A stretch of 64,000 nucleotides of DNA, from the NCBI GenBank assembly GCA_963730605.1, contig CAVSSM010000001.1:128001-192000 (forward strand). Direction: 5' to 3'. Position 1 is the stretch's first letter. Each line of letters opens with the position of its first letter. The stretch is from an uncultured Chlamydiae bacterium (GTDB lineage Bacteria; Chlamydiota; Chlamydiia; Chlamydiales; SM23-39). Below are positions 54,273-55,895 of this stretch, one piece after another. The position numbers and the translations under genes are program-made. The notes beneath the pieces were generated by a model. The model was not told where the DNA came from. It saw only the letters and a program-made list of their open reading frames with translations, and made no database searches.

Positions 54273-55895
54273 CTAGCGGACTGCCAGTTTGGGAAGAGCT
54301 GGGATCGGAGGCTTTAAGGGCGGCCTTTTGATTGGGGGGGCGTCTTTGAGGGCGCGCCGCTTCTCGATTTCTCGTTCCGCCGACACCATATCGATGACCG
54401 ATTGGTCGATCATCGTCTGGGTGAGTATGTGGTTCGCCGAAGACGCTTTCTTATTGGAGATCGCATTCAATAGCTTGAAGAGCGAGCGTCCGGGGAAACC
54501 GTTCGTCGCCTTAGCGATTCTTTGGACTTGAGGTAACTTGAAGTACCTCTCTTGCTCAATGGTCGAAAAGAATTGAGGGACGTAGGACTGAAGAATCCGC
54601 ACCCGTTCCGGTTCGGCTGGCGGCCCAATGTAGATCTTGTGGTCGATACGGGTCAAAACCGCTTCGTCCAGATAACCCACTTGGTTAGTCGAGAGGATGA
54701 TCATGAATTTGGTGCTTTCCGTACCAGTGCGGTTGAGGAATGCGTTCTGCAGCTCGAGAAGCTCGGCGGTCGGGATCGTCGCGCGGTCGCGGCAAAGGCT
54801 CTCCGCTTCATCGACGTACAATATCCACTGCCTTGTCGACCATGGGCGCCAAGAGAGGTTTATCTTGTCGAAGAGCTTATTCAGCTCGGTGACGTGCTCT
54901 CCCCGTTTGATGTACTGGGCTAAATCGCCGCCGGACATTTTGATGTAGCTCATGCCTGTATTTTTCGCGATGTATTCGCTGATCAACGTCTTTCCAGTAC
55001 CTCCGGGGCCGTAGAAAAGGACGTGTTGGAAATACCCTCCGTTCTTGCGGATATTTTGAGTAGCGGCGATGAGCTCGTTGACGCGGCGTGTGATTTTAGG
55101 GCTGAAGACGGGCTTTTTTTGCTTGGGGCTGGAGCCGAAAAGGGACGAGGCGGCGCTTTTGACCCGTTCGGTCAATGGAGTGATGAGGGTGTGTTGGTGA
55201 ACCTCCGTCGCAAGTTTCGGAGTGCCGATATTGTGCAAGGCTTTCCGATACACCCAATAAGTAGCGAGTGGGGTGGCAATGGCGGCTGCCAAGCCTAATA
55301 AAATGATGGGGAGAAGCTCGAAGGTCGCGACATTGATCACTTGGCCCCCGACATTTCTCATCGCGGTCGTTAGCACCTTCCCTAAATCGTCGGTGAGGTG
55401 TTGGATCAGGTCGTGCACATCCAAGGCTTCAATCATCGAGTGGAGCTTTTCGTTGAGTTTCGCCATAACGTCTGCAACGTCGGCATTGGCAATGAGATCC
55501 CCTACGACGCGGGAGGTTATTTCGCTCACTTTCGCAGGATCGAGGCCTACTGTATCGGCAAACTTTTGAGATTCCCGCAGCAGGAAGCCTGCAGAGAATG
55601 CGCCCACAGCGCCTTGCTCGATTCCTGTACCATTGATAAAATTTTGCCCCGCTTGGAAGGCCCATTGACCCAATGTTTTGGCATCAAAAGTAGTAGTGAA
55701 GTTCGTATTGGAGTTAGTGAAGTACTGAGGCAAAATCTTAGTCACGATTTGGCTTACCTTATCCTCCAAGGGCCCAAAGGCCAATTTATGCATATTGCGG
55801 AACACCGAGCCGCAGAAACTGATCTGATCCGGAAGCTTTCCGGCGAGGTCGGCTAGGAGATAACTGCCTACGGCGTAAACGGCTACACGATTCAT
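54273..55895 (-). CDS. Membrane-anchored AAA+ ATPase, ATAD3-like
   Basis: TM then IGTPKLATE; VLFYGPGGTGKT, MSGGDLA, YVDEAE, NAFLNRTG..S.KFMIILSTN, RID. Confidence 0.8.
   Translation of the reverse strand: MNRVAVYAVGSYLLADLAGKLPDQISFCGSVFRNMHKLAFGPLEDKVSQIVTKILPQYFTNSNTNFTTTFDAKTLGQWAFQAGQNFINGTGIEQGAVGAFSAGFLLRESQKFADTVGLDPAKVSEITSRVVGDLIANADVADVMAKLNEKLHSMIEALDVHDLIQHLTDDLGKVLTTAMRNVGGQVINVATFELLPIILLGLAAAIATPLATYWVYRKALHNIGTPKLATEVHQHTLITPLTERVKSAASSLFGSSPKQKKPVFSPKITRRVNELIAATQNIRKNGGYFQHVLFYGPGGTGKTLISEYIAKNTGMSYIKMSGGDLAQYIKRGEHVTELNKLFDKINLSWRPWSTRQWILYVDEAESLCRDRATIPTAELLELQNAFLNRTGTESTKFMIILSTNQVGYLDEAVLTRIDHKIYIGPPAEPERVRILQSYVPQFFSTIEQERYFKLPQVQRIAKATNGFPGRSLFKLLNAISNKKASSANHILTQTMIDQSVIDMVSAEREIEKRRALKDAPPIKRPPLKPPIPALPKLAVR

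Follow-up and report, generated by a model that had tools for sequence, protein, structure and literature searches.

The window analysed here, a 64,000-nucleotide stretch of a contig from an uncultured Chlamydiae bacterium, belongs to a genome assembly of 2.2 Mb in 12 contigs that is 83% complete, and it carries on its reverse strand a gene for an ATAD3-like membrane AAA ATPase, called P0001 below. The open reading frame is intact and encodes 540 aa without an internal stop. The gene and its protein can be divided as follows.

54273..55895 (-), gene of the ATAD3-like membrane AAA ATPase P0001, 540 aa, one open frame
55341..55895 (-), N-terminal domain, aa 1-185: amphipathic helices rich in Gly/Ala/Phe, with ~24-residue periodicity family-wide, evolving fast and distinct from the ATAD3 coiled coil
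55248..55319 (-), membrane segment, aa 193-216: two conserved prolines, then basic residues
55203..55229 (-), post-TM [ILM]GxPx[LI] motif, aa 223-231, common to the chlamydial family and ATAD3
54360..55121 (-), AAA module, aa 259-512: AAA motifs, pLDDT mostly above 90, dN/dS 0.17

The transmembrane (TM) segment expected ahead of the motif corresponds to a single hydrophobic stretch (about aa 187-216, KD19 up to 2.2), which together with the GxPxL linker directly precedes the AAA module, with basic residues following on the motor side. Pfam assigns AAA (PF00004) to aa 292-424 and gives no second domain above cut-off. Walker A (296-303, with K302 and T303), Walker B (D362/E363), sensor 1 (N404) and the arginine finger (R416) are all intact, and these elements are invariant across 38 aligned chlamydial members. 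Pore loop 1 lacks the canonical aromatic residue seen in the FtsH and p97 rows, as it does in ATAD3, and within the P0001 subclade Y328, R331 and G332 of this loop are invariant; the module also bears the ATAD3-type pore-loop-2 signature A385/T390/G391. An AlphaFold model is confident for the motor (pLDDT mostly above 90 over aa 260-520) and shows the N-region as helical with low confidence (mean pLDDT 74). The motor is under purifying selection: by simple counting in a single pair of orthologues, dN/dS is 0.17 for the motor and 0.89 for aa 1-185. Many family members, P0001 not among them, have a two-segment hydrophobic insert between the GxPxL linker and the motor; in P0035, P0037, P0049, P0064 and others it is a two-helix hydrophobic hairpin whose loop often carries a Cys pair. 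The GC content of the gene is 0.53 and its GC3 0.65, compared to a genome median of 0.59 and a 95th percentile of 0.68, and its neighbours are bacterial (ligA, glgB, a radical SAM enzyme with UPF0004, and marC). Given these neighbours and this genome-like composition, the gene is not eukaryotic contamination.

The original prediction had set five motifs of the protein beside ATAD3 counterparts. All five are present in the translation, and the counterparts align in a fish-like ATAD3 (P0183), in which the linker and the pre-Walker-A helix depart from the quoted versions at a few positions, as one would expect from a different species. P0001 and this P0183 fragment, which carries PF12037, share 35% identity over 330 aa (pairwise E 2e-47), and a profile-profile comparison of 29 chlamydial with 20 eukaryotic ATAD3 sequences gave a probability of 100 and an E of 1.4e-55 over residues 217-511; the homology therefore extends beyond the Pfam AAA domain, beginning at the linker after the TM. 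Against a profile of 25 eukaryotic ATAD3 cores, P0001 scored 189 bits and 22 chlamydial proteins 134-214 bits, whereas the best of 189 other AAA domains reached 123 bits (median 78), leaving a gap of 66 bits between P0001 and the best outgroup domain; the reverse profile test gave 174-212 bits versus 119. The predicted likeness beyond generic AAA boxes is thus borne out, since the same 189 bits compare with 79 bits for p97, the best solved-structure match (summed over two domains), and with 51 bits for the best NCBIfam model. Among solved structures no match at the ATAD3 level was found, and a fold search of the ATPase, returning generic AAA matches only, was set aside. The top Atlas matches, at 0.97, are two eukaryotic clusters, one of them named ATAD3 with PF12037 in 53%, and one Chlamydiota cluster. 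A phmmer search with aa 190-520 of P0001 against 1.84 billion representatives found 178 proteins at E 1e-30, and among the best 150 of these the chlamydial family comes first, followed from E 1e-37 by eukaryotic ATAD3 and signal-peptide-bearing bacterial proteins, along with multi-domain proteins ranked by summed score. PF12037 occurs in 11 of the 60 phmmer matches scanned, the named ones including a fish, a millipede and a Babeliales bacterium.

Single residues tell the same kinship. A385 is a shared derived residue of the ingroup, the position being Q in 14 of 14 outgroup rows, and T390 is found in 68 of 70 ingroup rows and in none of the 14 outgroups, 12 of which have D. The [ILM]GxPx[LI] motif is present in 119 of 164 chlamydial, 44 of 52 eukaryotic and 8 of 29 Dependentiae-like proteins, compared to 3 of 64 outgroup proteins. 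Similarly, G323 is shared by 22 of 26 chlamydial and 22 of 24 eukaryotic rows, and by 3 of 20 Dependentiae-like rows. G332 is kept in the chlamydial family, the outgroups and the Dependentiae-like proteins, and is not among the three commonest residues of its column in eukaryotes. At the level of sequence, profiles and residues establish P0001 as a true member of the ATAD3 superfamily, on a branch specific to Chlamydiota. The p97/Cdc48, PAN/Rpt and FtsH proteins have the fold and the nucleotide motifs in common with it, but are 20-28% identical, carry their own aromatic pore residue and have Q/D where the chlamydial family has A/T; P0001, moreover, has no protease domain.

P0001 is nevertheless not an ATAD3 orthologue, as it is missing ATAD3_N (no Pfam match to PF12037 at E 0.01) and has amphipathic repeats of ~24 residues instead. 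With eukaryotic ATAD3 (ATAD3A/B, Drosophila bor and PfATAD3, all of PF12037 plus PF00004 layout) it shares the TM, the GxPxL linker, the pre-Walker-A helix, one AAA module with a single arginine finger, the ATAD3-specific residues and the want of a canonical pore-loop-1 aromatic, at 33-35% identity over the homologous part. The chlamydial family, on the other hand, has Gly/Phe-rich amphipathic repeats rather than the ATAD3_N coiled coil, a different pore-loop-1 sequence with Tyr/Lys/Arg/Gly, and a bacterial, patchy and multi-copy occurrence, with a dedicated partner gene in the P0001 subclade. Coiled-coil composition is not seen in the N-region of P0001, and the E+K+R+Q fraction of the N-region is 0.19 in chlamydial proteins versus 0.40 in ATAD3. 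The hydrophobic moment of this Gly/Phe-rich domain lies above that of shuffles in 28 of 28 proteins, which would suit lipid binding, with the proviso that helical proteins generally exceed shuffles, and its mean autocorrelation is strongest at lag 24, then at 7 and 11.

Profiles of the pre-AAA region provide characters outside the columns of the tree. With the eukaryotic profile, 40 of the 57 Dependentiae-like N-regions score at least 15 bits, compared with none of the 177 chlamydial ones (P0001: -1.3 bits). The chlamydial profile reaches at least 15 bits in 10 of the 14 members of a Gly-rich Dependentiae-like subfamily (4 of 14 when reversed), in 4 of 43 other Dependentiae-like proteins and in 0 of 47 eukaryotic N-regions, and is partly compositional, as 85 of 177 reversed chlamydial sequences also score at least 15 bits. 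These N-region scores suggest a gradient from eukaryotes through most Dependentiae-like proteins and one Gly-rich subfamily to chlamydiae, in agreement with the maximum likelihood (ML) sister group described below. A signal-peptide heuristic, admittedly crude, is positive for 14 of 150 chlamydial, 19 of 29 Dependentiae-like and 13 of 43 eukaryotic proteins; P0001, with a mildly hydrophobic N-terminus, is negative, and 8 of 29 subclade members pass, including the close relatives P0002, P0003 and P0006. The balance of S/T/P/N relative to charged residues is 0.12 at the N-termini of the family versus 0.02 in 937 genome ORFs, and the first 25 residues of P0001 itself are average, lying at the 41st percentile of the genome for effector-like composition.

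For the phylogeny, an IQ-TREE analysis (LG+C20 PMSF) was run on 84 rows and 252 columns, the rows being hand-picked from 339 dereplicated domains via a FastTree overview, with L049 and the long-branch rows L034, L082, L083, P0287 and P0313 left out. Chlamydial, Dependentiae-like and eukaryotic ATAD3 rows are joined at 100/99, a branch outside which p97/Cdc48, PAN/Rpt and FtsH fall. Within it the chlamydial clade (26 rows) stands at 99/99 and the eukaryotes (24 rows), with no chlamydial rows among them, at 99/95, while the 20 Dependentiae-like rows do not form one group and the backbone is weak. The label Dependentiae derives from a single named protein, P0192, which clusters with loci of the phylum to which G412 belongs. 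The ML sister of the chlamydial clade is one Dependentiae-like subfamily (81/93, not starred) with a similar Gly-rich N-region. The Dependentiae (Babeliales) ATPases share with P0001 the superfamily and a pore region of the aromatic-x-[KR]-x-GE type, but mostly have a signal peptide and ATAD3_N remnants, whereas P0001 has neither signal peptide nor coiled coil. One protein, P0189, groups with bacteria yet has ATAD3_N similarity.

The family is not placed in another AAA clade: a topology joining chlamydiae with four non-ATAD3 AAA domains was rejected (AU p 0.0001), as was one nested placement with the two deepest eukaryotic rows (p 0.007). Neither eukaryotes plus chlamydiae as one clade (p 0.13) nor all bacteria as one clade (p 0.45) was rejected, so the kinship is clear and the direction of transfer is not. 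The proposal of a host-derived protein is accordingly not supported for a recent event, in view of the separate clade outside sampled eukaryotes, the rejected nesting, the retained G332 and the missing ATAD3_N, and may still hold for an ancient transfer from a stem eukaryote. As to the companion suggestion, that the gene is a clue to the origin of ATAD3, the Dependentiae-like proteins are nearer and the chlamydial family looks like a derived offshoot. Both the tree and the N-region point weakly to the Dependentiae subfamily; the more frequent sharing of G323 and GxPxL between chlamydial and eukaryotic proteins counts against that sisterhood. A direct host origin is not favoured, and we lean slightly towards a branch, old in Chlamydiota, that goes back to a bacterial ancestor of Dependentiae type, encountered in a protist host common to both, rather than directly to the host nucleus. 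A bolder scenario, which we think unlikely, has ATAD3 arising in bacteria that infect protists. After diversifying in Dependentiae the family would have reached Chlamydiota, and the stem eukaryote would have received it from a parasite of this kind rather than from the ancestor of mitochondria; the chlamydial ATPase and its Cys-rich partner would then be a minimal bacterial two-part membrane-contact machine.

The chlamydial family comprises about 190 sequences. Of 400 phylum genomes scored, 26 have matches at E 1e-40 (1-3 each), spread over 5 of 44 families; in a set of 41 relatives, 4 match at E 1e-25, and G003 has 4 copies. Of 41 loci examined, the 25 that match at E 3e-49 or better are all metagenome bins, titled chlamydiae (19), uncultured bacterium (5) and Verrucomicrobia (1), and the named close homologues are Chlamydiales, Rhabdochlamydiaceae and Parachlamydiales bins. 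L026 (titled Chlamydia trachomatis) and L022 (titled Verrucomicrobia) look like mislabelled environmental chlamydial bins and are not evidence of presence in those taxa. Housekeeping synteny shared among family loci was not found. The genome of the window itself has a second, divergent paralogue, 33% identical to P0001; located at L006 1417-2814 (-), on G000:C1 near 636-637 kb, it has 465 aa and a ~17-residue insert in pore loop 1, and adjoins a gene that is presumably typA/bipA-like. G003 has two copies of this paralogue.

Outside Chlamydiota, the profile of the signal-peptide-bearing group matches in 38 of 81 genomes of the phylum of G412. None of 401 alphaproteobacterial genomes matched at E 1e-42 with 3 candidates scored per genome, a weak negative, since the divergent G412 pair scores just 7e-33 with the same profile and divergent members would thus be missed. 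In the alphaproteobacterial order of G413, the single match among 13 is FtsH, and across the alphaproteobacteria sampled nothing scored above FtsH. L049 (titled Rickettsiales; 3386-4978, +) encodes a signal-peptide AAA protein of a tiny-genome alphaproteobacterium with a GPGG Walker A as in the chlamydial family, and its divergence is too great for an ATAD3-like assignment (probability 92, E 5e-7). Viral contigs gave 8 matches, all of them weak (E 1e-7 or worse), and plasmids generic AAA/FtsH only, none covering 80%. Among eukaryotes, P0238, P0246, P0259, P0260, P0266, P0268, P0271 and P0272 are stramenopile-type ATAD3 with an extra N-terminal signal-peptide-like region, one of them with an intramolecular chaperone domain match (PF13884); they form a eukaryotic ATAD3 paralogue, perhaps not a mitochondrial one.

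Across an intergenic gap of 86 bases, the ATPase gene lies head-to-head with a second gene, P0347, and the gap holds two overlapping promoter-like sites.

55982..57415 (+), partner gene P0347, 477 aa, a single TM near aa 56-80, C-domain entirely helical and containing 14 Cys
55927..55955 (-), promoter-like site of the ATPase gene, sigma-70-type, 10 of 12, extended -10
55919..55948 (+), promoter-like site of the partner gene, divergent and overlapping, 11 of 12, extended -10

Such sites number 5 in 2 kb versus 1.6 expected, and by eye the overlapping layout recurs in 5 of 6 other intergenic regions. Among the 8 loci of the P0001 subclade, the partner is head-to-head in 5 (the window, L009, L010, L012 and L015) and not so in L014, the other 2 (L011 and L013) being cut by contig ends; searching from the partner, both metagenome loci found have the ATPase head-to-head. 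The protein collection contains 10 partner homologues, its own record included, and 5 of the other 9 agree with a subclade ATPase in the length of their longest contig, which suggests that they lie on the same contigs. Of 401 phylum genomes, 3 have a strong partner match, each alongside a subclade ATPase, and 1 has a weak match; the partner was not found in the 18 loci of other subclades (L016-L033), nor did the 77 ORFs in the 1.5-kb flanks of Dependentiae-phylum loci show homology to it. P0347 looks like an N-in membrane protein, several of its Cys are invariant, and it has no Pfam family, no usable Atlas match and no Foldseek match at E 0.001. A sub-threshold NCBIfam match was taken as noise, and its best structural Z, 9.3 to designed helical bundles, is not informative. 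The linkage suggests that in its subclade the ATPase probably works with this co-regulated head-to-head partner, a putative binding partner.

Our tentative account, which as a whole falls just short of an even chance, is that P0001 is a secreted membrane-remodelling motor of Dependentiae-type ancestry. It would be an active ring ATPase with a one-helix membrane anchor, given its intact motifs, and presumably a hexamer like others of the AAA class. Signal peptide and coiled coil would have been swapped for lipid-binding amphipathic repeats, and a type III system would deliver the protein to the membrane of the inclusion or to a host membrane nearby. There the ATPase domain would face the host cytosol and ATP would drive the building, moving or release of membrane tethers, probably bringing host lipid or sterol to the vacuole; on this delivery and tether work, taken by itself, we regard the chances as evenly balanced. 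Chlamydiae take up host sterols and lipids. Without the aromatic pore residue of p97/FtsH-type unfoldases, the ATPase should grip a dedicated partner or membrane complex, not thread bulk substrates.

An effector role is plausible from the patchy, multi-copy occurrence without housekeeping synteny, the fast N-domain and the few signal peptides; the gene, moreover, lies near unnamed membrane proteins and a >1700-aa ORF, and a SctJ/FliF-family gene is present in the genome. Against it, the first 25 residues are not effector-like and the single 24-residue hydrophobic helix is not a typical bilobed Inc domain. Like Inc proteins, most chlamydial members are without a signal peptide, patchy and fast-evolving, and some have the extra two-segment hydrophobic insert before the motor; P0001, with one TM, differs from them in lacking the bilobed hydrophobic domain that defines Inc proteins (PMC6925127), and its secretion is putative.

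We nevertheless favour the secreted motor over two other roles. A motor resident in the bacterial envelope, possible if doubtful, would sit in the inner membrane with the ATPase in the bacterial cytoplasm and the amphipathic domain periplasmic or on the membrane surface; with its disulfide-rich partner it might link the inner membrane to the outer one or carry lipid of host origin across the envelope, as ATAD3 works between mitochondrial membranes. The basic residues after the TM on the motor side are consistent with this, as are the strong primary-sigma-type promoters, the Dependentiae-like relatives with signal peptide, coiled coil, TM and AAA, and the hydrophobic N-terminal stretch of 8 of 29 subclade members, compatible with a topology of two helices, like that of FtsH, in a membrane of the bacterium itself. 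The N-in partner with its 14 Cys also suits an oxidising compartment such as the periplasm. However, 136 of 150 members have no signal-peptide-like start, so that, from Sec biology, a domain of 100-260 residues would not easily become periplasmic; patchiness, multiple copies and fast N-domain evolution are unlike envelope housekeeping, and the partner is confined to one subclade.

More improbable is a mimic aimed at mitochondria, for which an early chlamydia would have taken ATAD3 directly from a eukaryote, the secreted protein entering the host mitochondrial inner membrane via the TM-plus-basic segment and joining or poisoning host ATAD3 rings. The AU result for a joint clade (p 0.13) allows it, GGD and GxPxL motifs are held in common, and Waddlia is reported to recruit mitochondria around its vacuole (PMC6925127). 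It sits poorly with a family that is not nested among sampled eukaryotes, keeps G332 as outgroups and Dependentiae-like proteins do, is only about 35% identical to host ATAD3 and bears no trace of ATAD3_N, which is described as needed for oligomerisation and partner binding (PMC11599198). That P0001 is an ordinary bacterial AAA ATPase, its resemblance to ATAD3 being generic or a long-branch artefact, is very hard to believe: Pfam detects PF00004 only, Atlas also gives viral and myxobacterial AAA clusters at 0.94-0.95, and the tree was built without meiotic-clade, Msp1 or Bcs1 sequences, but the 66-bit gap, the derived A385/T390 and the AU p of 0.0001 contradict this reading, and the best 150 phmmer matches are the chlamydial family, ATAD3, Dependentiae-like proteins and, by summed score, multi-domain proteins.

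In the literature cited here ATAD3 is a eukaryotic, mitochondrial protein whose molecular function is unclear. These sources place it in animals, plants and protists and not in yeast (PMC3790746), describe its topology, coiled coils and arginine finger (PMC11599198), and give its domain layout and absence from fungi in a main text that makes no mention of bacteria (PMC13249166). In the literature searched on ATAD3 evolution and homologs we found no report of a bacterial or chlamydial ATAD3, though the main evolutionary review (Waters et al. 2023) and Frickey and Lupas (2004) may mention bacterial matches. Waters et al. are said to have noted its absence from Amoebozoa. The chlamydial family brings a second bacterial phylum into the ATAD3 superfamily, as a branch that has an N-domain and a partner of its own, and a family of this size shows that the ATAD3-type motor works with quite different N-terminal domains. 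It separates the core (TM, linker and AAA with the unusual pore) from the eukaryotic part, the coiled coil, and its compact proteins with a candidate dedicated partner are material for biochemistry and structure. As nothing above the FtsH background was found in the alphaproteobacteria sampled, the question of the origin of ATAD3 is reopened, and if the protein is secreted, an ATP-driven motor would join the chlamydial membrane effectors.

Several neighbours in the window deserve mention. At 53119-54177 (-) is a Rieske oxygenase with KshA_C, whose best solved match is 3-ketosteroid 9-alpha-hydroxylase (E 3e-41), possibly a sterol-modifying enzyme in a chlamydia; a conserved sterol module of the ATPase and this KshA-like enzyme was considered and dropped, the two being neighbours nowhere but in the window and in one genome of the same genus. 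Beyond the partner, 57464-58216 and 58197-58898 (+) encode two small proteins of no known family that are similar to each other by BLAST and, having two hydrophobic segments each, are Inc-like by eye, and from about 58895 to 64000 (+) an open frame of >1700 aa runs off the window end, a giant protein and possibly an effector. A 172-aa ORF at 49620-50138 (+) combines a single hydrophobic segment with a C-terminal Thr/Pro-rich repeat; downstream the repeat runs on in a different frame (49975-50220), which points to a frameshift or to slippage of the repeat. Finally, the lower-GC stretch at 47640-49426 (+) (GC 0.44 in 48001-50000) holds a signal-peptide beta-propeller-like protein and a probable outer-membrane beta-barrel, and similar neighbours occur in L031.
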